Source: Nostoc sp. NMS4 (GTDB lineage Bacteria; Cyanobacteriota; Cyanobacteriia; Cyanobacteriales; Nostocaceae). Taken from it: a DNA stretch of 32,000 nucleotides. Of the stretch, positions 7,470-27,214 are shown piece by piece. Position 1 is the stretch's first letter. The number at the start of each line of letters is the position of its first letter. The stretch spans positions 7,148 to 39,147 of the forward strand of contig NZ_JABXKI010000226.1 of the NCBI RefSeq assembly GCF_017115095.1, read 5' to 3'. Under the pieces are notes generated by a model. That model saw only the letters and a program-made list of their open reading frames with translations, had not been told where the DNA came from and did no database searches. The translations under genes were made by a program, and so were the position numbers.

Positions 7470-10400
7470 TTAGTCATCATTCTTGATTGTGCCAACTCCT
7501 TGATTATTGTTAAATATGGCGTTTGCAGCACCATAGATATTGACAAAAAATGTTTCATTGGGTTCAACTTTATTATCACCTCTAACGCCAATACTAATAA
7601 CTTTGCTGGTTTCGCCAGCGTTGAAAATAACTGTCCCCAATCCAAAGTTGTAATCCGAGTCAGATTCTTTGGCACTACCATCACTCGTACTGTAATTTAC
7701 AATCACCCGTTGAGAGAATTCATTAGAGAGAGTAACGACAAAATTAGCATTAGTTATCATCCCTGTTGTGCCTTCTTTGACTGATACATCTGCAATGCTA
7801 ATAGCTGGAGGCTGATCATCATTTGTAATAGTAGCCACTCCTAAGCTATCAGTAATCGTAGTGTTTATAGCACCGAAGAGATTGACAGAAAATGTCTCGT
7901 TATTTTCAGCTTTATTATCGCCGATGACACCAATACTAAGAGTTTTGCTAGTTTCGCCAGGATTGAAAACGATCGCCCCAGAAGCAGGGTTGTAATCCGA
8001 GTCAGAAACTTTAGCAGTACCATCACTGGTGTTGTAATTTACAGTAACCTGCTGAAAACTGGGTGCAGAGAGAGTGACGGTAAAGTTAGCATTAGTTGTT
8101 GTGCCTGTGTTACCTTCAACAACTGAGACATCCGAGATACCGATCGTTGTTTGGTTGTCATCATCAATGATATTACCAATACCTAAACTATCTGCGATCG
8201 CAGCATTGCTTGCACCCGAAAGATTGACAGAAAATGTCTCGTCAGTTTCAGTTTGATTATCACCGATGACACCAATATTAAGAGTTTTACTAGTTTCACC
8301 AGGATTGAAAGTAATCGTCCCCTGAGTAAAATTGTAATCAGAGTCAGCAACTTGAGCAGTGCCATCATTTGTGTTGAAATTTACACTAACCTGCTGAGAA
8401 CTAGGATTGGAGAGACTGATAGTAAAGTTAGCGTTAGTGGTTGTACCTGTGTTGCCTTCGGTAACTGAAACATCTGAAATATTGATAGTTGGTTGATTAT
8501 CATCATTGATAATGGTAGCAACTCCTAAACTATCTGCGATCGCGGCGTTTGTTGCACCCGAAAGATTGACAGAAAATGTCTCGTCAGTTTCAAATTGATT
8601 ATCACCGATGACACCAATATTAATAACTTTACTAGTTTCACCAGGATTGAAAATAATCGTTCCCTGAGTAAAATTGTAATCAGAGTCAGCAACTTGAGCA
8701 GTGCCATCATTTGTGTTGAAATTTACACTAACCTGCTGAGAACTAGGATTGGAGAGACTAATAGTAAAGTTAGCGTTAGTTGTTGTACCTGTGTTGCCTT
8801 CACTAACTGAAACATCCGAGATGTTGATAGTTGGTTGATTATCATCATTGATAATGGTAGCAACACCTAAATTATCTGCGATCGCAGCATTGCTTGCACC
8901 CAAAAGATTGACAGAAAATGTCTCGTCAGTTTCAAATTTGTTATCGCCGATGACACCAATACTAATAACTTTACTAGTTTCACCAGGAGCGAAAATAATC
9001 GTTCCCTGAGTAAAATTGTAATCAGAGTCAGCAACTTGAGCAGTGCCATCATTTGTGTTGAAATTTACACTAACCTGCTGAGAACTAGGATTGGAGAGAC
9101 TGATAGTAAAGTTAGCGTTAGTTGTTGTACTTGTGTTGCCTTCGTTAACTGAAACATCCGAGATACTGATAGTTGGTTGGTTGTCATCATCAACGATAGT
9201 ACCAACTCCTAAATTATCTGCGATCGCAGCATTTGTCGCACTTAAAAGATTGACAGAAAATGTTTCGTTGGTTTCAGCTTTGTTATCACCGATGACACCA
9301 ATACTAATAACTTTGCTAGTTTCCCCAGGATTAAAAGTAATTGTCCCTGAAGCCGAATTGTAATCAGAGTCACCAACTTGAGCAGTGCTATCACTCGTGT
9401 TGTAATTTACGGTAATCTGCTGATAACTGGCATTGGAGAGACTGATAGTAAAGTTAGCATTAGTTGTTGTGCTTGTATTGCCTTCGCCAACTGAAACATC
9501 TGAGATAGCGATCGTTGGTTGACTGTCATCATTGATGATAGTAGCAACACCTAAATTATCTGCGATCGCGGCATTTGTTGGAGCTAAAAGATTGACGGAA
9601 AATGTCTCGTCGGTTTCAAATTTGTTATCCCCTACAACACCAATGCTAAGGGTTTTACTCGTTTCACCGGGATTGAAAGTAATCGTACCTTGAGGAGAAT
9701 TATAATCAGAATCAGCAGCATTAGCAGTGCCATCACTCGTGTTGTAATTTACAGTAATCTGCTGTGAACTAGGATTGGAGAGACTGATAGTAAAGTTAGC
9801 GTTAGTTGTTGTACCTGTATTCCCTTCAGTAACTGAGACATCCGAGATGCTGATAGTTGGTTGGCTATCATCATTAATAATGTTTACTGTCGCTGAACTG
9901 TTAGTAATTGTAGAATTTGCCGGTGCAGCTGTGAGGTTGGGGTTACTCAGGTTAACAGTAATGCCTTCATTGAGTTCAAATGTATTGTCACCCAAAACAT
10001 CGACTGTAATTGTTTTTGTGGTTTCCCCAACAGCGAAGCTTAAAGTCCCAGATGCAGCAGTTCCTCCACCCGTCACTTGAATATTGTTATAGTCACTGCC
10101 AAAAGTTGCCGTACCGCCAAAAGCATAATCTACGGTGCTAGCTACGCCAACACCACCACTGCGAGTAACCGTAAAGCTAACAGCTTGAGTCCCGTTATTA
10201 CCTTCATTTAAACTTGAGGTGGCGGTAGAAATTCCATATTGAATCGCATCATTAGCAGCAATATTTAGAGTAGTTTCAGTTATTGTCCCCAAATCAGCCC
10301 CTGTTGGCGTGCCGAAGTTGAGTACAACTGTTTCTGCATTCTCAGGTAAATCGTCTGGGTTAATAGTAAAAGTAATTAGCTGTGTTAAATTTGAGCCTGT

Positions 10401-20491: not shown

Positions 20492-20663
20492 TTAGAATCC
20501 TGGGGTAGTACCTTCACATATCGTGGTGAAAATTCCTAATTTTTGCTGAGGCGATCGCTAAACAAATCCCACAAAAATAGTAACAGTTAGTTGCAAATTT
20601 TGAAGTAGATTTCTATAAATCATCATCAAAATTCCGTTTTACTGTTTGAGGATAGAAATAATC

Positions 20664-21053
20664 ATGAAAAATAAAGTATTGTTTGGTGCCATCTTTATGG
20701 CAACTTGGGTAGGAACATTAATTCCCGGTGCTTTTGCGGCTTCACCCTGTTCTGTGGGACAAAAGGCTGAGGTTCTTTGGAAGCAATCATGGTATCCGGC
20801 AACGGTACTTAAGGTTAATGATGATAAGTGCTATATTACCTACGATGGTTATGATAGTTCTTGGAATGAATGGGTTGGCAGTAGACGCTTTCGGGCATCA
20901 TTTCAAGTTGGAGATGCAGTGAGAATTTTGTGGAAGGGAAAATGGTATGCAGGGCAGGTTTTAGAAGTTAGTAACGATCTTTATAAAATTACTTATGATG
21001 GCTACGATAGCTCTTGGGATGAGTGGGTTGAACCTGCAAGGGTAAGTAGATAG
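20664..21053 (+). CDS. secreted protein with two tandem Tudor/Agenet/SH3-like repeats
   Basis: Signal peptide MKNKVLFGAIFMATWVGTLIPGAFA|AS. There is an internal duplication: AEVLWKQSWYPATVLKVNDDKCYITYDGYDSSWNEWV and VRILWKGKWYAGQVLEVSNDLYKITYDGYDSSWDEWV. The ATG at 20664 is preferred over the TTG at 20646. Confidence 0.7.
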   Translation: MKNKVLFGAIFMATWVGTLIPGAFAASPCSVGQKAEVLWKQSWYPATVLKVNDDKCYITYDGYDSSWNEWVGSRRFRASFQVGDAVRILWKGKWYAGQVLEVSNDLYKITYDGYDSSWDEWVEPARVSR

Positions 21054-21078: not shown

Positions 21079-21125
21079 AAGGGACGATTTCACCTGTTGG
21101 AGTCGTCCCTTAATTTGTTTTATAA
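21079..21125 (+). terminator. intrinsic terminator candidate
   Basis: AAGGGACGA (21079-21087) pairs with TCGTCCCTT (21103-21111). It is followed by AATTTGTTTTATAATTT and lies 25 nt after the stop at 21053. Confidence 0.55.
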
Positions 21126-21213: not shown

Positions 21214-21588
21214 ATGGAGCCAGTATCACTCACAGCAGGTGCGATCGCAACTTTGGTAATCATCAAAGCCTTTGAAAAAACTGGTGAAATCATCGGCGAA
21301 AAGGCTTGGGATGAAGGTGAAAAGTTGTTAGTTCTGCTGAAACGCAAGGAACCTAGCACGGCGAAGGTTATCGAACAGGCTAAAACACAACCTTTAGATT
21401 ATGGTCAAGCTTATCTCATTGGGCAGCAAGTAGAGGAAGCGGCAAAGAAAGATCCTGAAATTGCTCAAGCTGTTGAAGCATTGGCTAAAGAAGCTCAACC
21501 GCAATTGACTCAAACTATTGAAAACTATAAAGGGATAATCATTAAAGGCGGAAATAATACTGTTTCTGGCAATACTTTTAACTTTTGA
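21214..21588 (+). CDS. helical N-terminal (putative effector) module of an NLR-like protein, ended by an in-frame TGA
   Basis: ATG start. The N-terminal helix is hydrophobic (VSLTAGAIATLVIIKAF), the middle is charged and helical, and the tail is G/N-rich (YKGIIIKGGNNTVSGNTFNF*). It is in the same frame as the NB-ARC ORF, and codons 21589-21648 are open. Confidence 0.6.
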   Translation: MEPVSLTAGAIATLVIIKAFEKTGEIIGEKAWDEGEKLLVLLKRKEPSTAKVIEQAKTQPLDYGQAYLIGQQVEEAAKKDPEIAQAVEALAKEAQPQLTQTIENYKGIIIKGGNNTVSGNTFNF

Positions 21589-21648
21589 CTACAGTCGCCC
21601 GAACGGGAACGGGTAAAGTCAAATCCCTCTACTGAAATACCGCAAAAT

Positions 21649-23733
21649 TTGCCCCTGAGTGGGGTGGTGGAGTTTGTCGGACGTAAGGAAGAACTTCAAA
21701 AACTCCACCAACTTTTGCAGGATAATAAACAAGTAGCTATTGCAGCGATCGCCGGGATGGGTGGAGTTGGTAAAACAGAACTCGCCTTACAATATGCAAT
21801 CAAACGGCGCGAAATATATAACGGTGGGCTTTGCTGGTTGCTAACAAAGACTGGAGATGTGGGCATTCAAGTTGTGCAGTTTGCCAGAACGCAGCTTGAT
21901 TTAAAGCCGCCAGAAGATGTTGATTTACTCGCCCAAGTGCAATATTGTTGGCGGCGTTGGCGTGAAGGTGATGTGCTGCTAGTGCTGGATGATGTCAGCG
22001 ACTACGAGGAAGTCAAACCTTACTTACAGTCGCTACCTTCTCGGTTTAAAGTGCTGATGACTACCCGCCAGAAGTTGGGACGCATCGCACAGTTATCTTT
22101 GGATGTGCTGCAACCAGAGGCGGCGCTGGAATTATTAAATTCTTTACTCAAAGAAACACCGGGGCGAATTGAAAAAGAATTAGCTTTAGCAAATCAGTTG
22201 TGTGAGTGGCTGGGATATTTACCTTTAGGTGTGGAATTAGTCGGGCGCTATCTGGCGCGGAAACAGGATTTATCTTTAGCAGAAATGTTCCGGCGGTTGG
22301 AGAACAAGCGATTAGATGAGCGTTCTCTTTCTAAATCTAAGTCGGAAGCTGACATGACAGCACAACGAGGTGTGTTAGCAGCCTTTGAGTTGAGTTGGCA
22401 GGAATTAGAAGACGACGATAAACAATTGGGTTGTTTATTGAGTTTATTTGCCGCCGCACCTATACCTTGGAAGTTGGTGGAACAGTGTTTACCAGAAGAA
22501 GATGCCGAAGATTTAGAAGAAATTAGAGATGATACCTTGTTGAATCTGCATTTAGTTCAGCGCAAAGGTGAGGGAATTTATCAACTGCATCCACTGCTAC
22601 GGGAGTTTTTTCAATATAAGCTTACAGGTTTAGATAAGGGGGAGGAATTAAAGCGATCGCTTTGTCAGATAATGGTAGCAGTTGCCAAGAATATTCCTGA
22701 AACACCCACCCTTCAGCAAATCACCGCCGTTTCTCCCGACATACCTCATGTAGCTGAAGTAGCGAATAATCTGATTCCATACATCAGCGATGAAGATATA
22801 GCAAGCCTTTTCACCAGCTTGGGTGAATTCTATGAATGTCAGGGGTTGTATGCACAGGCAGCACCTTGGTATGAGAAGTGCTTAGTCGTTACTCAAAAGC
22901 GCTTTGGCTCAGAGCATTTGTCTGTTGCTCAAAGTTTAAATAATCTGGCGTTAATATATCAATTACAAGGATATTACAAAAAGGCTGAGCCTCTTTGTCT
23001 GCAAGCCTTAGAACTTACACAACGCCTATTAGGACAGGAGGATTTATTAGTTGCCACTAGTCTCAATAATCTGGCAGAACTCTACAAATTACAAGGGCGT
23101 TATCAAGAAGCCGAACCCCCATTTTTGCAAGCTTTAGAACTTAGGCAACACCTGCTAGGACAGAAGCATTCATTAGTTGCCACTAGTTTTAACAATCTGG
23201 CAGAACTTTACAAATTACAAGAGCGTTATAGAGAAGCCGAACCTTTTTGCAACAAAGCTTTAGAAATGTACGAAAGCTTGCTAGGACAGGAAAATCTGTT
23301 GTTTGCGACTAGTCTGAACAATCTGGCAACACTCTACTTTTACCAAAAATTTTACATGGAAGCCGAACCCATGTTTTTGCAAGTTTTGGAATTGAGGCAA
23401 CGTCTGCTAGGAAAGGATCATCCTGACGTTGTTCAAAGTCTCAATAATCTGGCAGAACTCTACAAATTACAAGGGCGTTATACAGAAGCAGAAACTCTAT
23501 TACAGCAAGCCTTAGAAATGGGAAAACGCCTTTTGGGACAAGAGCATCCTAACTTTGCCATTAGCCTCAGCAATTTGGCAGGTATCTATATGTTACAAAA
23601 ACGTTATAAAGAAACTGAACCTATATTAAAGCAAGCCTTAGAGATTTGTGAGCATAGCTTAGGAGTAGGTCATCGCTCAACAATAATGGTTCGTAGAAAT
23701 TATGCAATTTTCTTGAGGCAGGCATATCGTTAA
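21649..23733 (+). CDS. NB-ARC (STAND) ATPase with 7 x 42-aa TPR (KLC-like) repeats
   Basis: FVGRKEEL, Walker A GMGGVGKTELA, Walker B VLLVLDDV and the GLPL-like LPLGVELVG are all present. Seven repeats follow of SLNNLAELYKLQGRY.EAEP...QALEL.QRLLGQEH..VA. The only start called is the TTG at 21649. The reading frame stays open upstream to the TGA at 21586-21588. Confidence 0.85.
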   Translation: MPLSGVVEFVGRKEELQKLHQLLQDNKQVAIAAIAGMGGVGKTELALQYAIKRREIYNGGLCWLLTKTGDVGIQVVQFARTQLDLKPPEDVDLLAQVQYCWRRWREGDVLLVLDDVSDYEEVKPYLQSLPSRFKVLMTTRQKLGRIAQLSLDVLQPEAALELLNSLLKETPGRIEKELALANQLCEWLGYLPLGVELVGRYLARKQDLSLAEMFRRLENKRLDERSLSKSKSEADMTAQRGVLAAFELSWQELEDDDKQLGCLLSLFAAAPIPWKLVEQCLPEEDAEDLEEIRDDTLLNLHLVQRKGEGIYQLHPLLREFFQYKLTGLDKGEELKRSLCQIMVAVAKNIPETPTLQQITAVSPDIPHVAEVANNLIPYISDEDIASLFTSLGEFYECQGLYAQAAPWYEKCLVVTQKRFGSEHLSVAQSLNNLALIYQLQGYYKKAEPLCLQALELTQRLLGQEDLLVATSLNNLAELYKLQGRYQEAEPPFLQALELRQHLLGQKHSLVATSFNNLAELYKLQERYREAEPFCNKALEMYESLLGQENLLFATSLNNLATLYFYQKFYMEAEPMFLQVLELRQRLLGKDHPDVVQSLNNLAELYKLQGRYTEAETLLQQALEMGKRLLGQEHPNFAISLSNLAGIYMLQKRYKETEPILKQALEICEHSLGVGHRSTIMVRRNYAIFLRQAYR

Positions 23734-23890
23734 CTCTACGCTCACCTCAGATGCAGTAAAGTTTTAGCTATCAGCTACAAGGTGCTTGGGAGGTGAAAAA
23801 TTAGGGATGATGCGAAAAATAATTTACAAGTTTTGTGCAAAGCGTACTGTAATAAAACTGAAAAGTGCGATGCCTAGACTAAAATTCATA

Positions 23891-24121
23891 TTGAACTAAG
23901 TAAAAATGCCATTCAACTTACTAAAAATGAGCTTTGACTTTCTCAAAAGCAGCTAGGACTTTCTCAAAATAAGCTTTTACTTTCTCATTTTGGTGTTTTC
24001 CGCAAGCAAAAGCAGCTTTTACTTTCTCAAAAGGAGCTTTTGCTTTCTCATTTTAGTGTTTTCCGCAAGCAAAAGCAGCTTTTACTTTCTCAAACCCCAG
24101 TTTGCTTTTTCATTTGAGTAA
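23891..24121. repeat. eleven perfectly phased 21-nt units (consensus TTTTACTTTCTCAAAAGCAGC), including a 63-nt higher-order duplication
   Basis: Unit boundaries were counted at 23891, 23912, 23933, 23954, 23975, 23996, 24017, 24038, 24059, 24080 and 24101. Segment 23975-24037 is nearly identical to 24038-24100. Confidence 0.85.
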
Positions 24122-24350: not shown

Positions 24351-24496
24351 CAAGAGAAGGGTATACTTCATTTACTTGCAAAGTGCTGTATATTGAGCCA
24401 AAAGCTATTATGTAGTTGTGAATGATGGAGAGCAATGTTTCCCGCAAGAAAAAATCAGCTACGATAAATCATATAATTCTCTTCACAAACATAGCA

Positions 24497-24715
24497 ATGT
24501 TAATTACATACACTGCAAAATATACAAAAACTAATAGCGGATATATGGGACAACTTATTGAATGGCAAGAAGTCATCACAGAAGGAGAAACCATAGAAGA
24601 ATGTAGAGCTATGTTACAAGATGCAACCAAAGAAATGGTTCTTGCCTATCGTCAACAAAATAAAGAAATTCCCACAGGTGGCTCTTTGCTGGAACAAATT
24701 CCTATAGAGGTTTGA
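24497..24715 (+). CDS. hicB: HicB-like antitoxin (N-terminal HicB fold only)
   Basis: MLITYTAKYTKTNSGYMGQLIEWQEVITEGETIEECRAMLQDATKEMVLAY fits the HicB/UPF0150 pattern. The ATG at 24497 is preferred. It overlaps hicA by 4 nt (TTGA). Confidence 0.7.
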   Translation: MLITYTAKYTKTNSGYMGQLIEWQEVITEGETIEECRAMLQDATKEMVLAYRQQNKEIPTGGSLLEQIPIEV

Positions 24716-24906
24716 GTGTGTCAGTCAAACGAAAAGAGCTAATTAAATACTTAGAGCAAAATGGCTTTTATTTATTAAGGGAAGGAGGAAATCATTCTAT
24801 ATATACTAATGATATCAAAACTCTTCCGGTAAAACGGCATCGTACCATTGATCGGATTACTGCTAATGAAATTTGTAAACAAGCGGGTTTATCACCTAAT
24901 TTTTAA
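24712..24906 (+). CDS. hicA: HicA-like mRNA interferase toxin
   Basis: KRKELIKYLEQNGFYLLREGGNHSIY...LPVKRH..IDRITANEICKQAGL matches the HicA/YcfA pattern. The start is TTG at 24712 or GTG at 24718. Confidence 0.75.
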   Translation: MSVSVKRKELIKYLEQNGFYLLREGGNHSIYTNDIKTLPVKRHRTIDRITANEICKQAGLSPNF

Positions 24907-25089
24907 CTGCCACTTAGAACCGTCGAAGGTAATGAAGTTTTGGGCAGCTTGTAAACTAAGTAAAGGCGACTATTTGCAAATTAAAGAAAAACTATTTGCT
25001 AAAGAAACGGTTGCCAGTTTATATGCCAAAATCAAAGAATATCAAGATGATGAGGCTATACTTTAAAGTGTAAATCTACAAGCGATCGC

Positions 25090-25449
25090 TTAAAAAGGAA
25101 TCCATTCAAACTGATCTATCCATTCTTGTGCCTCAGTAGTCTCCCAAACCAGCAATAGTTCTTGTGCTAATTGCCCTATTGGTATTCTCGGACGCAACCA
25201 GAATAAGCCCCAAATATTTCCACCTTCTGCCCAATGTGCTTCTAAATGAGCCGGCATACTAGCGCGGTTATCTGTCACTAACAGTCGTTGAGATAATTGC
25301 AGATAAACCAACACATCAGGGTCTAAAGTTCCTAATGTTGGTGCATTACTTTCACCCACACGCAAAATATCTATCGCCGGGTTAAGACGAAGAACAGCTA
25401 CTTTCAGGCGCAGTGACAAATTTTCATCGAGCAAAAAAAGAACTTTCAC
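25090..25449 (-). CDS. DUF5615-family PIN-like protein (putative toxin)
   Basis: (M)KVLFLLDENLSLRL...LLVTDNRASM is typical of DUF5615/Mut7-C-like PIN proteins. The GTG start overlaps the upstream DUF433 stop by 1 nt. Confidence 0.7.
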   Translation of the reverse strand: MKVLFLLDENLSLRLKVAVLRLNPAIDILRVGESNAPTLGTLDPDVLVYLQLSQRLLVTDNRASMPAHLEAHWAEGGNIWGLFWLRPRIPIGQLAQELLLVWETTEAQEWIDQFEWIPF

Positions 25450-25841
25450 TAAGCACTTACCTGACGTTCATTTCTTTGATTTTTTAACATTCTGAGGCGC
25501 TGTACCAAAGGTGAAGGATTTGTAAGCGATTCTTGGTAACGCTGTTCACGCCATATTACTAGACGTGACAAATAAGCTTCGATATCGGCGCGATTATGGA
25601 GATAGTAAGTAATAGTAGCGTGAATTTGTTCCAAACTCAAACTAGGTAGATTAGCAGCAATTTCTTCCGGCGTATATCCTTCCAAGTAATAATCAAGTAC
25701 ATTGTCGATGCCAATGCGGTGTCCTTTTAGGCGAATATCATCGGCTGATAAAAAGTCAAAATAATCTTCTAGTTGCATTGGTCTACCCAAATGGAGTTCA
25801 TAATTATCTAGTCTTAAAGCCTTGAATGATGATGTTGTCAA
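25449..25841 (-). CDS. DUF433 domain protein (putative antitoxin partner of DUF5615)
   Basis: IRLKGHRIGIDNVLDYYLEGYTPEEIAANLPSLSLEQIHATITYY is the DUF433 pattern. The start is uncertain (TTG at 25841 or ATG at 25778). Confidence 0.7.
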   Translation of the reverse strand: MTTSSFKALRLDNYELHLGRPMQLEDYFDFLSADDIRLKGHRIGIDNVLDYYLEGYTPEEIAANLPSLSLEQIHATITYYLHNRADIEAYLSRLVIWREQRYQESLTNPSPLVQRLRMLKNQRNERQVSA

Positions 25842-25925
25842 GGCGTAGGCGTAGCCCGCACTTCTCTACGAGAGGCTGCGCCAACGACAAGCTCAGTGAC
25901 CATCGGAGACATCGCTATATAACCA

Positions 25926-26315
25926 TTACTCAAATAAATCAAATCCCTTTTCGCTTCTCAACTTTCTGTCAAAAGTCACTGTTGAACTACAACCAGAATG
26001 TTGAGCAATTACCCCAATTAAATAATCAGAAAAATCTGCACTTCCCTGCTTAAATCTTTGTAATGCTTGATAAACTAAAGAGCGATTTTCTAGCTCAAAT
26101 ACCGAACATTGGAGCATTAATTCGATAGTGTTACTAATTTCTTCTCTACTAAATTGATAAGGATTACTCCGTAAAACCCAAACCAATTCACAAATAACTA
26201 TATTAGCAACAAAACATTGCTCTCCCCCTTCGATAATTTCAGCAGCTTGCTCCCACTGCTTTTCATCATCTTTTGTCAAGTAGCGCACTAAAATATTTGT
26301 ATCAAGTCCAATCAC
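25926..26315 (-). CDS. vapC: PIN-domain toxin VapC
   Basis: (M)IGLDTNILVRYL... has the first PIN acidic residue, followed by ...ICELVWVL...DYLIG...TFD. The GTG start overlaps the vapB stop by 14 nt. Confidence 0.8.
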   Translation of the reverse strand: MIGLDTNILVRYLTKDDEKQWEQAAEIIEGGEQCFVANIVICELVWVLRSNPYQFSREEISNTIELMLQCSVFELENRSLVYQALQRFKQGSADFSDYLIGVIAQHSGCSSTVTFDRKLRSEKGFDLFE

Positions 26316-26547
26316 TTGAGCCTTCTTTAATTGCAGCTTCCATTTCTTCTAAAGTTGCGCTTTTCATTCCCGGACGGTGTAAAATCCCTGATAAACTTTG
26401 GATAGAGATATTCAAGGGAATTAATTTGACTATTCCATTTTCATCAATAACAAAATCAACTTTACTACCTGTATCAAGGTTAAGATAATCTCTAATTTCT
26501 TTAGGAATAGTTACTTGCCCTTTAGTAGTGATAGTCGCACTAGCCAT
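26302..26547 (-). CDS. vapB: AbrB/MazE/SpoVT-type antitoxin VapB
   Basis: TKGQVTIPKEIRDYLNLDTGSKVDF is the swapped-hairpin SpoVT/AbrB motif. The product is 81 aa with an ATG start. Confidence 0.8.
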   Translation of the reverse strand: MASATITTKGQVTIPKEIRDYLNLDTGSKVDFVIDENGIVKLIPLNISIQSLSGILHRPGMKSATLEEMEAAIKEGSSDWT

Positions 26548-26644
26548 TATCCAGGTTCCTTACATAAGTTCCTTACCTGATTATAAAGTCTACTGCGCCT
26601 AACGCACCGCCATAGGTAAATCGGCACAATAAAACCTTTAAAAT

Positions 26645-27214
26645 ATGATAGCTTCGCCCCAACAAAACTACGTCACTGCTGAAGAATACCTCCAAATGGA
26701 GGAACAGAGCGATATCAAGCATGAATATATCGACGGCTACATCTACGCAATGGCTGGAGCGCTAGATCCACATGTTACTATTGCGGGAAACCTGTTCGCT
26801 CTCCTCCGTAATCATGTGCGCGGCTCTGGTTGTCGTGTTTACATCGCTGATATGAAAGCCAGAATTGAATCTCTGAATCGCTTTTATTATCCCGATGTGA
26901 TGGTTACTTGCGATCGCCAAAATCGAGAAACGCCAGGTTATAAAAGATTTCCCTGTTTAATTGTCGAAGTTTTATCTAATTCTACCGAAGCCTTTGACCG
27001 GGGCGACAAATTCGCCGATTATCAAACACTGGAAAGTCTGCAATAGTATGTTTTAATTAATACAAAACGCCAGCGAGTTGAGTGTTTTCGACGCAATGAG
27101 CAGGGGTTGTGGGTTTTACAATCCTACACAGCAGAGCATCAATCATTTCGACTTAACAGCGTGGATTTTGACGAAACAATGGCAGCACTCTACGAAGATG
27201 TAGTTTTTGAATAA
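26645..27214 (+). pseudogene. Uma2 (DUF820) family endonuclease interrupted by an in-frame TAG at 27044-27046
   Basis: The N-terminal part is ...TAEEYLQMEEQSDIKHEYIDGYIYAMAG...YYPDVMVTC...PCLIVEVLSNST...DRGDKFADYQTLESLQ*. The same frame continues YVLINTKRQRVECFRRNEQGLWVLQSY...LYEDVVFE*. That is the expected Uma2 C-terminus (family pattern LQEYVLI...), and the stop replaces the expected Glu codon. Confidence 0.75.

Follow-up and report, generated by a model that had tools for sequence, protein, structure and literature searches.

Within the window, by which we mean the whole stretch of 32,000 nucleotides of Nostoc sp. NMS4 DNA analysed here, a 124-codon ORF (21214-21588) closes with a TGA at 21586-21588, 20 open codons follow, and an NB-ARC/TPR ORF runs on to 23733, all of them in a common frame. 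The question is what this single stop does: whether it is a lesion in one gene, the border between two genes, or a signal that some ribosomes are meant to pass. From the comparison of related loci described below, we conclude that the locus is probably translated as one unit, with a UGA (opal) stop programmed for readthrough. The arrangement itself, one frame across a single TGA with 20 open codons behind it, had been described in an earlier note on this DNA and was borne out by the ORFs of the window. The relevant features, all on the + strand, are the following.

21079..21111, + strand: terminator-like hairpin, a 14-bp stem and then a T-run, which ends the upstream Agenet-domain gene
21214..21585, + strand: small effector ORF with ATG start, 124 aa, Bell-like; MEPVS N-terminus with a hydrophobic helix, predicted helical body (residues 8-107) and C-terminal motif
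21520..21585, + strand: G/N-rich C-terminal motif ENYKGIIIKGGNNTVSGNTFNF, candidate BASS-like amyloid signalling motif, in a single copy at the locus
21586..21588, + strand: in-frame TGA, proposed recoding (readthrough) site, invariant across the cassette loci
21589..21596, + strand: CUA codon (+4 C) and 8-nt spacer CTACAGTC, identified by context conservation
21589..21648, + strand: stop-free 20-codon linker (LQSPERERVKSNPSTEIPQN) between the TGA and the nominal TTG start, translated solely if the TGA is read through
21597..21627, + strand: 31-nt H-type pseudoknot, identified by covariation and synonymous-site constraint
21597-21601 with 21610-21614, + strand: pseudoknot stem S1, 5 bp
21605-21608 with 21624-21627, + strand: pseudoknot stem S2, 4 bp
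21615-21623, + strand: pseudoknot loop 3, A-rich
21649..23733, + strand: NLR-like STAND ATPase ORF, for which the TTG at 21649 is a nominal start only
~21685-22356, + strand: NB-ARC domain, with Walker A at 21754-21777, and TPR sensor at ~22735-23655 (Pfam)

The pseudoknot, the kinship with Bell/BASS amyloid signalling and the contrast with two-gene relatives carrying paired motifs were absent from the earlier note.

Organisation of the locus and the small effector

The hairpin at 21079..21111 marks the 5' limit of the effector-NLR unit, and neither promoter-like nor terminator-like sites were found on the + strand in the interval from the small ORF to the NLR ORF. The NB-ARC and TPR part begins 60 nt downstream of the effector ORF on the same strand. 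Pfam analysis of the 714-aa translation from 21589 identified NB-ARC at residues 33-256 (2.5e-16) and seven TPR_10 repeats (5.5e-78), in agreement with the effector/NB-ARC/TPR logic deduced previously. Membership in the Avs group, which had also been proposed, is unsupported: PADLOC returned its generic TPR model PDLC01169 and two insignificant matches. The suggested defence island comes down to a toxin-antitoxin cluster on one flank of the unit; the genes on the opposite flank are housekeeping genes.

Judged by its homologues, the small protein is a member of a standalone conserved family of ~125 aa. The family comprises 226 homologues, and every one of the 120 listed is standalone and has a length of 87-163 aa. 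Among 1.84e9 representatives, 495 proteins matched, and the best 150 of these 495 are nearly all 65-175 aa long. In the N-terminus, MEPVSLTAGAIATLVIIKAFEKTGE, the positions M1, P3, L6 and A8-L14 are each at least 90% conserved among the homologues; a MEPIS-type N-terminus has been reported for Bell domains (10.1101/2024.11.07.622273). The C-terminal motif ENYKGIIIKGGNNTVSGNTFNF is conserved, invariably protein-terminal and predicted to be disordered (pLDDT <50). AlphaFold2 predicted six helices with a disordered C-terminal tail for the small protein, at modest confidence (pLDDT 63.8). The small ORF had no match in Pfam, NCBIfam or PADLOC, and a sequence-profile search of the PDB returned designed coiled coils only. 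Foldseek comparison of the AlphaFold2 model (pLDDT 63.8) with the PDB gave nothing at E < 1, and plant CC domains appeared at E ~2-6. On the grounds of its motif, size, predicted helices and context, we regard the protein as Bell-like.

Conservation of the TGA, its frame and the downstream pseudoknot

An invariant TGA is shared by 62 genome loci, by 17 metagenome contigs and by 3 finished plasmids, one of which is Acaryochloris marina pREB5. Its carriers span several cyanobacterial orders, and the cultured strains among them include Acaryochloris marina MBIC11017, Nostoc sp. C057, Nostoc punctiforme NIES-2108 and Nostoc sp. ATCC 53789. TGA followed by CTR was present in 62 of the 80 related genome loci, where the small proteins are just 42-97% identical. 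The junction shared by the cassette loci consists of TGA-CTR, an 8-nt spacer and a conserved 31-nt element; in the alignment columns after the TGA, C13 shows at least 90% conservation, T14 never varies and A is usual at position 15, with CT(A/G) in essentially all loci. As a background we used 362 long ORFs from the same loci, which end in TAA (203; 56%), TAG (92; 25%) or TGA (67; 18.5%), and CTA follows none of these 67 TGA stops. UGA is the leakiest stop, and both a +4 C and the context UGA-CUA favour readthrough (PMC7026636; PMC5289835).

The reading frame is conserved as well. Frame 0 is open downstream of the TGA in 61/62 genome loci, for 124-1201 codons, compared to just 9 of the 362 background ORFs that are followed by a long in-frame ORF. 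The downstream genes belong to at least 13 types (among them NB-ARC/TPR, NACHT, nSTAND1+WD40, nSTAND3/5, PsbP-like, TM proteins and small proteins). Frame 0 of the linker contains no stop in 700 codons, compared to 56/665 and 40/665 in the other two frames, and all differences between linker length variants are multiples of 3.

The earlier note had left room for a decaying gene, that is, a once-fused effector-NLR gene interrupted by a nonsense mutation or by a mistake in sequencing or assembly. The window does stem from a metagenome-assembled Nostoc genome, and the small ORF is disrupted in a few related loci (L021, L026, L036). Against this, the identical TGA and context recur in >80 independent sequences, some of them from finished plasmids of strains in culture, and both ORFs are intact and conserved. 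A pseudogene and mis-sequencing are both rejected by the invariance of the TGA in >60 loci, the finished plasmids among them, and by the small ORF being a conserved standalone family. The earlier note had further proposed to look for a sense codon at the TGA position in related loci; the TGA is invariant there, and no sense-codon version was found in protein collections of 5.8e9 and 1.84e9 entries. A junction query (effector + W + NB-ARC) and a profile search of the 1.84e9 representatives likewise recovered no sense-codon fusion; the few long matches have other architectures in which the L-x-SPERERVK linker is missing. We therefore give decay or error next to no probability and, by these comparisons, would call it already refuted.

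Other ways of passing the stop were also considered. A +1 frameshift at U-UUU-GA was rejected, as the shifted frame meets a TAA after 9 codons and TTT is replaced by TTC in most loci. Hopping of ribosomes over the stop is also unlikely: the codon ahead of it differs among loci, which leaves no conserved take-off/landing pair. Reassignment of the genetic code is excluded because at these loci 18.5% of the remaining long ORFs end in TGA.

The 31-nt element is best described as an H-type pseudoknot, with small stems of 5 and 4 bp. Among 56 distinct sequences, 98.2% of cells are paired under this model, noting that in the 17 metagenome sequences some paired columns were fixed beforehand by the collection patterns. 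Double-change cells numbered 18, compared to 4.6 +/- 1.6 after shuffling (0/500), with shuffles uncorrected for phylogeny. Compensatory pairs were CG/UG/UA/GC at columns 24-35, GC/GU/AU/CG at 29-51, CG/UA at 22-37 and GC/GU/AU at 30-50. Third-position entropy within the element is 0.21 bits, compared to 0.6-1.1 in the flanking coding sequence, which corresponds to a 3-5x lower synonymous variation. A nested bulged hairpin (19-24 with 29-36) was rejected, with zero compensatory changes and no excess over shuffles. RNAalifold at default settings gave a 3-bp hairpin only, and Rfam had no match on 21300-21900. In 15 Nostoc loci the linker is 9 nt shorter and the pseudoknot is unable to form; no equivalent pseudoknot was found in this variant. 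Since these loci retain the TGA and keep both ORFs intact, the pseudoknot is not indispensable.

A conserved RNA structure shortly downstream of a UGA also recalls the position of bacterial SECIS elements. Insertion of selenocysteine, or recoding by another special tRNA that a downstream RNA structure would direct, would mean efficient decoding by a dedicated system rather than low-level near-cognate readthrough, and the structure that begins ~9 nt past the UGA is positionally compatible with this. Its fold is, however, a pseudoknot and not a SECIS-type hairpin, Rfam gave no match, the UGA lies in a linker and not at a redox site, and no homologue has Cys or any sense codon in its place. A search of the window and of the 100 loci gave neither tRNA-Sec nor an opal-suppressor tRNA, nor in fact any tRNA. 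The cassette thus differs from bacterial selenoprotein genes in the SECIS hairpin, the Cys homologues and the nearby tRNA-Sec alike, and we consider this explanation highly improbable.

Taken together, conservation extends from the TGA and its sequence context to the reading frame and the pseudoknot. As a leaky TGA and a pseudoknot have been kept in frame at dozens of cyanobacterial loci, the stop is a conserved and probably programmed readthrough signal. Of the explanations offered by the earlier note, low-level TGA readthrough is accordingly the one that the comparative data favour.

Start codons and motif copies of the NLR

The main competitor of programmed readthrough is a pair of ordinary co-transcribed genes. 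The NLR would then initiate independently at TTG/GTG or at ATT/CTG, possibly by termination-reinitiation coupling; the RNA element would serve coupling, mRNA stability or regulation, and the effector and a motif-less NLR would interact in some other way. In most loci, the window included, a TTG or GTG lies 18-27 codons past the TGA and could initiate a motif-less NLR. Strong Shine-Dalgarno sequences are often missing in cyanobacteria. The absence of the pseudoknot from the short-linker variant and the annotation as two genes in both RefSeq and GenBank also fit, and Bell and NLR genes are usually separate and closely spaced (10.1101/2020.01.06.895854).

Inspection of the start codons speaks for a different picture. 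The first canonical start past the TGA in the window is the TTG at 21649, as had been noted before, and the GTG codons at 21664 and 21667 are next; for the identical sequence, RefSeq uses the TTG (694 aa) and GenBank a GTG (689 aa). The position of the TTG is occupied by TTA or CTC in 12 loci. Canonical starts appear only from codon 36-39 onwards in L037, L050, L055, L067 and L076, and only from codon 57, within the P-loop, in Acaryochloris, for which RefSeq uses ATT as the start. Plasmid CP019637.1 has none before codon 103, past its Walker A motif at codon 54. The NLR part is therefore without a conserved start codon. Of the outcome that the earlier note had set against a single gene, namely orthologues with two genes and a conserved start for the NB-ARC part, the two ORFs are indeed present but a conserved independent start is not. 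The linker segment ..EIPQN.. is homologous to an internal stretch of NLRs having their own start, and close NLR relatives carry N-terminal modules of their own (EAD4 and others) before the shared IPxNxPxSG..FVGR segment.

A second difference concerns the amyloid-type motif. In 10 relatives in which the effector ends with TAA or TAG, the NLR is a separate gene with its own ATG start, in a different frame in 9/10, and the effector motif is duplicated in a pre-P-loop region of 69-90 aa. In contrast, this region has 48-55 aa and no motif copy in the TGA loci (n=51). Local alignment of the effector C-terminus with the NLR pre-P-loop region accordingly scored <=19 in the 51 TGA loci and 22-82 in the 10 TAA/TAG relatives. 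The second motif copy is thus missing at the TGA loci.

Two ordinary genes would leave unexplained why frame 0 is kept across at least 13 unrelated partner types and through indels in multiples of 3, and why the stop is consistently TGA-C. Nor would they account for the several loci in which canonical starts are missing up to, or even throughout, the Walker A region, or for the lack in TGA-type NLRs of the motif or adaptor found on all relatives encoded separately. Hence, we consider two separately initiated genes unlikely, though by far not as improbable as a dedicated recoding system.

Proposed readthrough and its relation to known systems

Under programmed readthrough, the majority of ribosomes would terminate at the TGA (21586-21588) and release a free 124-aa Bell-like effector, putatively membrane-targeting, with its C-terminal amyloid-type motif. 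We infer that a minority would actually read the UGA by a near-cognate tRNA, most likely tRNA-Trp; the weak UGA-C(UA) context and the compact H-type pseudoknot 8 nt downstream would assist. These ribosomes would continue through the NB-ARC/TPR ORF to give an 839-aa effector-motif-linker-NLR fusion, with the junction GGNNTVSGNTFNF-X-LQSPER, where X is the residue inserted at the UGA, expected to be Trp. The fusion may act as the sensor: upon activation and oligomerisation of its TPR/NB-ARC part, the clustered motifs would nucleate and, by amyloid templating, convert the plentiful free effector, leading to membrane damage in a presumed defence role of the unit (abortive infection or cell death). 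The readthrough rate would fix the ratio of effector to sensor and hold the dangerous full-length protein rare. As the fusion would template the free effector, a single gene copy of the motif could serve both partners. The motif is internal in the fusion; in the described systems it is N-terminal.

The closest known systems are the Bell/BASS-NLR pairs of filamentous bacteria (Dyrka et al., 10.1101/2020.01.06.895854) and the Bab/Agp antiphage pair (10.1101/2024.11.07.622273). They share with the present locus a helical protein of ~100 aa whose N-terminus is of the MEPIS type and which ends in a short G/N/Q-rich motif, the position of its gene directly upstream of a collinear STAND ATPase gene (NB-ARC/TPR or NACHT), and their occurrence in multicellular cyanobacteria. 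Relatives within the small-protein family (L047, L058, L064, L065, L073) show the textbook arrangement with the paired motif on the NLR N-terminus. By contrast, the NLR has neither a motif of its own nor a conserved start at the window and 61 other loci, a conserved TGA and a pseudoknot link the two ORFs in frame, and the same motif on the adjacent NLR is attainable only via a readthrough fusion. Readthrough or in-frame stops are not mentioned in 10.1101/2020.01.06.895854 or 10.1101/2024.11.07.622273, and we found no report of either in the literature on Bell/NLR and cyanobacterial STAND systems. The predicted product, effector-NOD-repeats, also resembles all-in-one NLRs with HeLo/Bell/CC-type death domains (fungal HELLP-type, plant CC-NLRs, Avast2 with a MEPIS N-terminus), but here the effector would also be freed in excess from the same mRNA, and the full-length protein requires recoding.

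Programmed readthrough is textbook knowledge for viruses and a few eukaryotic genes. Viral readthrough pseudoknots have a spacer of ~8 nt, as found in the window cassette. In viruses, readthrough is stimulated by 3' pseudoknots, and murine leukaemia virus gag-pol shares with the cassette a leaky stop, the C(UA) context, a compact pseudoknot of the H type whose loop 3 is A-rich, and an in-frame downstream ORF without its own start. Gag-pol makes its short and extended products at a fixed ratio (PMC7026636), as the cassette would. Unlike there, the present case would be a cellular gene on a bacterial chromosome or plasmid, with the UGA read by 70S ribosomes against RF2, and stimulation by the pseudoknot is presumed. 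Within bacteria, the UGA of the phage Q-beta coat/A1 gene is read by tRNA-Trp at a few percent, and the minor extended protein cooperates with the major short form. UGA readthrough that yields a minor C-terminal extension in a bacterial cell would thus be common to both, but A1 is a phage product with no known structured stimulator and no link to immunity. We know of essentially no documented programmed readthrough with a structured stimulator in bacterial cellular genes.

More broadly, and with somewhat less assurance than for the locus itself, we lean towards a portable recoding cassette (UGA-CUA, 8-nt spacer, 31-nt pseudoknot) of filamentous and certain other cyanobacteria that joins death effectors (Bell-like pore formers, alpha/beta hydrolases) to many STAND sensors during translation. 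This would be the first widespread case of structure-stimulated programmed readthrough in bacterial cellular genes. Amyloid signalling would moreover be solved with one gene: sensor and effector would share a single motif copy, and co-evolution of two copies would no longer be needed. Termination efficiency would set the stoichiometry, a new wiring of NLR and executioner in which the full-length killer is rare and the inert effector stocked. Because termination efficiency is governed by RF2 and by the pools and modification of tRNAs, the cassette could sense perturbation of translation in phage infection, with a possibly infection-responsive induction. If this holds, the covarying cassette would offer a bacterial model for recoding research, and hundreds of pairs annotated as a hypothetical protein and a truncated NB-ARC protein, with arbitrary starts (ATT, post-Walker A), would be misannotated.

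Two further observations relate to fused products. In L085/L086 and L094, the cassette follows an alpha/beta-hydrolase-like effector without amyloid motif, and fusion is there the only evident link to the NACHT partner. In P0368, a Bell-like part, the motif, a TM segment and a further domain are encoded uninterrupted by a stop, and this unbroken natural fusion implies that such fusion products are viable architectures.

Layout of the effector-NLR locus

The small Bell-like effector ORF and the NB-ARC/TPR STAND ATPase (NLR) ORF share one frame and are separated by a single TGA and 20 open codons; ORF coordinates and Pfam agree with this layout, which the earlier note had described correctly.

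The effector-NLR unit and its surroundings in the window
20646-21053: gene encoding a 135-aa protein, predicted to be secreted, that has two Agenet/Tudor-like repeats; the effector gene is its immediate downstream neighbour
21079-21111: terminator-like hairpin preceding the effector-NLR unit
21214-21588, plus strand: effector ORF, ATG start, 124 codons, TGA at 21586-21588
21589-21648, plus strand: linker, 20 codons, all open
to 23733, plus strand: NLR ORF in the effector's frame, first canonical start TTG at 21649
23890-24094: tandem repeat array immediately 3' of the NLR stop, 21-nt units nested in a 63-nt unit, 2.4 copies, 92% match
24422-24906: UPF0150/HicB-like gene and HicA
25090-25841, minus strand: DUF5615 and DUF433 pair
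25926-26315, minus strand: PIN-domain gene
26645-27046: Uma2 endonuclease

In the 714-aa translation from 21589, Pfam identified NB-ARC (residues 33-256, E 2.5e-16) and seven TPR_10 repeats. The effector ORF had no match in Pfam, NCBIfam or PADLOC. Its AlphaFold2 model is helical with a disordered C-terminal tail, at a modest pLDDT of 63.8 (below 50 for residues 102-124). In Nostoc sp. NMS4, the source of the window, it is annotated as 'hypothetical protein' (WP_292750010.1) and the NLR as 'tetratricopeptide repeat protein', an identical sequence started at TTG in RefSeq (694 aa) and at GTG in GenBank (689 aa).

No separating element was found between the two ORFs. Genes upstream of the unit have housekeeping or envelope functions and those downstream of the NLR form a small toxin-antitoxin-like or mobile-type cluster (24422-27046); thus, the proposed 'defence island' is weakly supported, by its downstream side. 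Agenet/Tudor-like domains, as in the upstream neighbour, are better known from eukaryotic chromatin readers.

Recurrence, stop identity and reading frame of the cassette

The effector family is well conserved. We found 226 homologues at E <= 1e-3; each of the 120 listed is a standalone protein 87-163 aa long. Among 1.84 billion representatives, a profile search gave 495 matches, the best 150 being nearly all 65-175 aa long. Members have the N-terminus MEPVSLTAAAIATLV..KA.EKTGE in common, and a G/N-rich motif, ..ENWQGINIKGGTNTISGNTFNF or ..DKNYGGNVGNVSNDNRNQTFNF, always forms their very C-terminus.

The cassette, consisting of the in-frame TGA, its CTR context, a spacer and a putative RNA structure, occurs once in the window. 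In 62 of 80 related genome loci gathered for comparison (L-numbers), the effector ORF ends in TGA followed by CTR, and in 61 of these 62 the frame stays open for 124-1201 codons or up to the contig end. A metagenome DNA-pattern scan added 17 contigs, and a plasmid search three finished cassettes (Acaryochloris marina MBIC11017 pREB5, Nostocales HT-58-2 pHT582-1 and Nostoc sp. C057 p057_C). This recurrence rules out a misassembly or a nonsense mutation private to the window and refutes the pseudogene or sequencing error considered in the earlier note. The effector ORF is broken by a premature TAA or TAG in L021, L026 and L036, which could be MAG errors or true decay of single copies; L021 and L026 still have the TGA cassette and NLR ORF, and L036 has no P-loop NLR downstream.

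TGA is the stop in every cassette. In the same loci, 362 other long ORFs end in TAA (203), TAG (92) or TGA (67), and CTA follows none of these 67 TGA stops. Frame 0 is kept by the downstream ORF regardless of the domain encoded: NB-ARC/TPR at most loci, other NB-ARC proteins (L074, L091), NACHT (L094), nSTAND1+WD40 (L066), nSTAND3/5 (L077), a PsbP-like domain after a TM segment (L068) or a protein without Pfam match (L029, L069, L082). Distances from TGA to Walker A are 168, 162, 159, 156, 150 or 147 nt, and therefore all indels are multiples of three. Over the first 60 nt past the TGA, frame 0 contains no stop in 700 codons, the other frames 56 and 40 in 665 each.

An independent, conserved NB-ARC start, which would indicate two separate genes, was not borne out. 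The TTG of the window is replaced by TTA or CTC in 12 loci, and the first ATG/GTG/TTG of L037, L050, L055, L067 and L076 comes at codon 36-39, past the conserved FVGRxxEL segment. In Acaryochloris (L098, NC_009930.1) the first canonical start is codon 57, within the P-loop, and RefSeq uses ATT. In pHT582-1 (L099, CP019637.1) it is codon 103 and Walker A lies at codon 54, so that the deposited CDS, annotated from a TTG 49 codons past Walker A, lacks the P-loop. Public annotations of the downstream gene at L098, L099 and the window NLR use arbitrary starts.

Relatives with TAA or TAG stops

The organisation of the locus suggests a strong kinship to Bell/BASS-NLR pairs. Like Bell, Hell and Avast2, the effector has a MEPIS-type N-terminus; it combines a ~100-aa helical domain with a short terminal motif and adjoins an NLR in filamentous cyanobacteria. 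HMM and fold searches do not prove homology of the effector to Bell, and the window locus matches no PADLOC system. In the described systems, the NLR bears the effector's motif and, once activated, templates the effector motif into amyloid, which unleashes a membrane-targeting domain (10.1101/2020.01.06.895854; 10.1101/2024.11.07.622273). This defining feature is absent at the window locus, whose NLR has no motif.

Ten related loci in which the effector ORF ends in TAA or TAG, with a P-loop NLR downstream, represent a natural control. Their NLR is a separate gene with its own ATG, in another frame in nine of the ten, and its pre-P-loop region of 69-90 aa holds a second copy of the effector C-terminal motif (for example, effector ENWKGINIKGGNSTIN matched by NLR ENWNGINIKGGNPVIN; local alignment scores 22-82). 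In contrast, at the 51 TGA loci with a P-loop NLR, only 48-55 residues precede the P-loop, and the motif copy is missing (maximum score 19). In close NLR relatives, the same IPxNxPxSG..FVGR segment follows an N-terminal adaptor of the protein's own (EAD4 and others); thus, TGA-type NLRs alone have a bare N-terminus, unless the effector ORF supplies one.

Since a TTG or GTG lies near the TGA in most loci, a motif-less NLR might also be initiated independently, alone or alongside readthrough. We consider this unlikely, as it leaves unexplained the identity of the TGA, the frame, the missing start, the contrast to TAA/TAG loci and the bare NLR N-terminus.

Among protein-collection matches (P-numbers), ~450-aa fragments of an NB-ARC subfamily close to the window's NLR (P0214, representing 125 sequences, P0207, P0255 and P0248) have a different built-in helical N-domain and then a motif such as GFQTLVTGGIANIGIHLN just before IPENIPRSG..FVGR, possibly another all-in-one amyloid-type architecture.

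A predicted pseudoknot and the proposed readthrough

In the 40 nt past the TGA, nucleotide conservation is far above the protein requirement; Aerosakkonema locus L067, with an effector 51% identical, matches the window at 42 of 42 positions.

Third-codon-position entropy over 35 distinct loci
effector C-terminus: 1.10 bits
NB-ARC: 0.80 and 0.62 bits
spacer and structure: 0.21 bits
rest of linker: 0.23 bits

Unaided, RNAalifold gave only a 3-bp hairpin. Sequence variants point to an H-type pseudoknot with short helices, making up a 31-nt element.

Predicted pseudoknot in the window
spacer from UGA: 8 nt
21597-21601 with 21610-21614: stem S1, G-C-C-Y-G pairing with C-R-G-G-Y
21605-21608 with 21624-21627: stem S2, N-G-G-A pairing with U-C-C-N
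loops: 3, 1 and 9 nt, the 9-nt loop A-rich and almost invariant

In 56 distinct sequences, 98.2% of cells are paired, the metagenome search pattern itself having fixed six paired columns; sliding the partners by one column lowers pairing to 51-53%. Two-sided changes occur in 18 cells compared to 4.6 +/- 1.6 in column shuffles, and the covariation score is 0.225 compared to 0.149 +/- 0.008 (0 of 500 shuffles reach either value), with shuffles that ignore phylogeny. Pair types (columns of alignment A3) are CG, UG, UA (8 sequences) and GC at pair 24-35; GC, GU, AU (3) and CG (3) at 29-51; CG and UA at 22-37; and GC, GU and AU at 30-50. Compensated variants are spread over different effector and partner lineages. 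Protein constraint cannot yield this correlation, because the columns are, for example, Pro third against Arg/Gln second positions. The Acaryochloris cassette keeps all nine pairs via wobbles. No Rfam family matches the region. A nested fold (19-24 with 29-36) was rejected, showing no compensatory change and no excess over shuffles.

Fifteen Nostoc loci (L003, L007-L009, L011, L012, L015, L016, L018, L020, L022-L024, L026, L031) have a 9-nt-shorter linker (TGA CTA AAG TCG CCC CAA GGG GAA TCG ATA GTT TCT), in which S1 cannot form and no substitute structure was found. TGA, frame and intact NLR ORFs are kept; readthrough may be weaker here, or the UGA-CUA context may act alone. Past the pseudoknot (21628-21685), synonymous sites are unusually invariant (GAA ATA CCG CAA AAT), and a longer predicted stem encloses a second conserved hairpin, CCCC-UGAGU-GGGG (about 21652-21668); in L049 the loop is wholly changed and both stems are kept. 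The RNA signal may extend to this hairpin. Floridaenema locus L066 (5418-5500) keeps TGA-CTA-CAG-TCG, the pseudoknot region being replaced by sequence encoding ..QVLGGIVVYVSGGQAIFGA.., a hydrophobic, G-rich stretch ahead of the nSTAND1/WD40 protein (TTG at codon 8) and possibly a signalling motif of another kind.

Among stop codons UGA leaks most, a +4 C, specifically UGA-CUA, favours readthrough, and structures a few nucleotides 3' of the stop stimulate it (PMC7026636; PMC5289835). The cassette fits this recoding grammar and resembles viral signals of stop, spacer and pseudoknot; therefore, the locus is most likely a programmed opal readthrough unit. Recoding by selenocysteine or another dedicated system is very improbable: the structure is a pseudoknot located in the linker, no homologue has Cys, no locus has tRNA-Sec or a suppressor tRNA, and a published survey found none of its cyanobacteria to have the Sec trait (PMC1273633). 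Also considered and rejected were +1 frameshifting, hopping and code reassignment. In literature of incomplete journal coverage, we found no readthrough or in-frame stops for Bell/NLR systems or cyanobacterial STAND genes; if true, readthrough here would be the first for bacterial cellular genes.

Programmed readthrough, at whatever rate and with whichever residue inserted, would yield the free 124-aa effector as major product and an 839-aa effector-motif-linker-NB-ARC-TPR protein as minor product, and would thereby supply the NLR with its motif. A single motif copy would guarantee identical template and substrate, and the excess of effector over sensor would be built in, with the dangerous full-length protein tightly limited. 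Amyloid templating, membrane attack and a role in defence would be expected by analogy to Bell/BASS.

At L085 (minus strand, cassette at 7484 of the reverse complement), L086 and L094, the cassette follows an alpha/beta-hydrolase-like rather than a Bell-like ORF (GHSLGG-type; weak DUF676/PGAP1 similarity, E about 1e-3) without G/N-rich motif, and the frame continues into NACHT proteins that have TM or glycine-zipper regions at the C-terminus. The general function would therefore be a translational effector-sensor fusion, with amyloid templating as its putative special case. Rare uninterrupted natural fusions of the Bell-like domain and motif to a TM segment and C-terminal domain, a coiled-coil region or HEAT repeats (P0368, 412 aa; P0356, 364 aa; P0396, 700 aa), without the L-x-SPERERVK linker, show that extended effector forms are viable.
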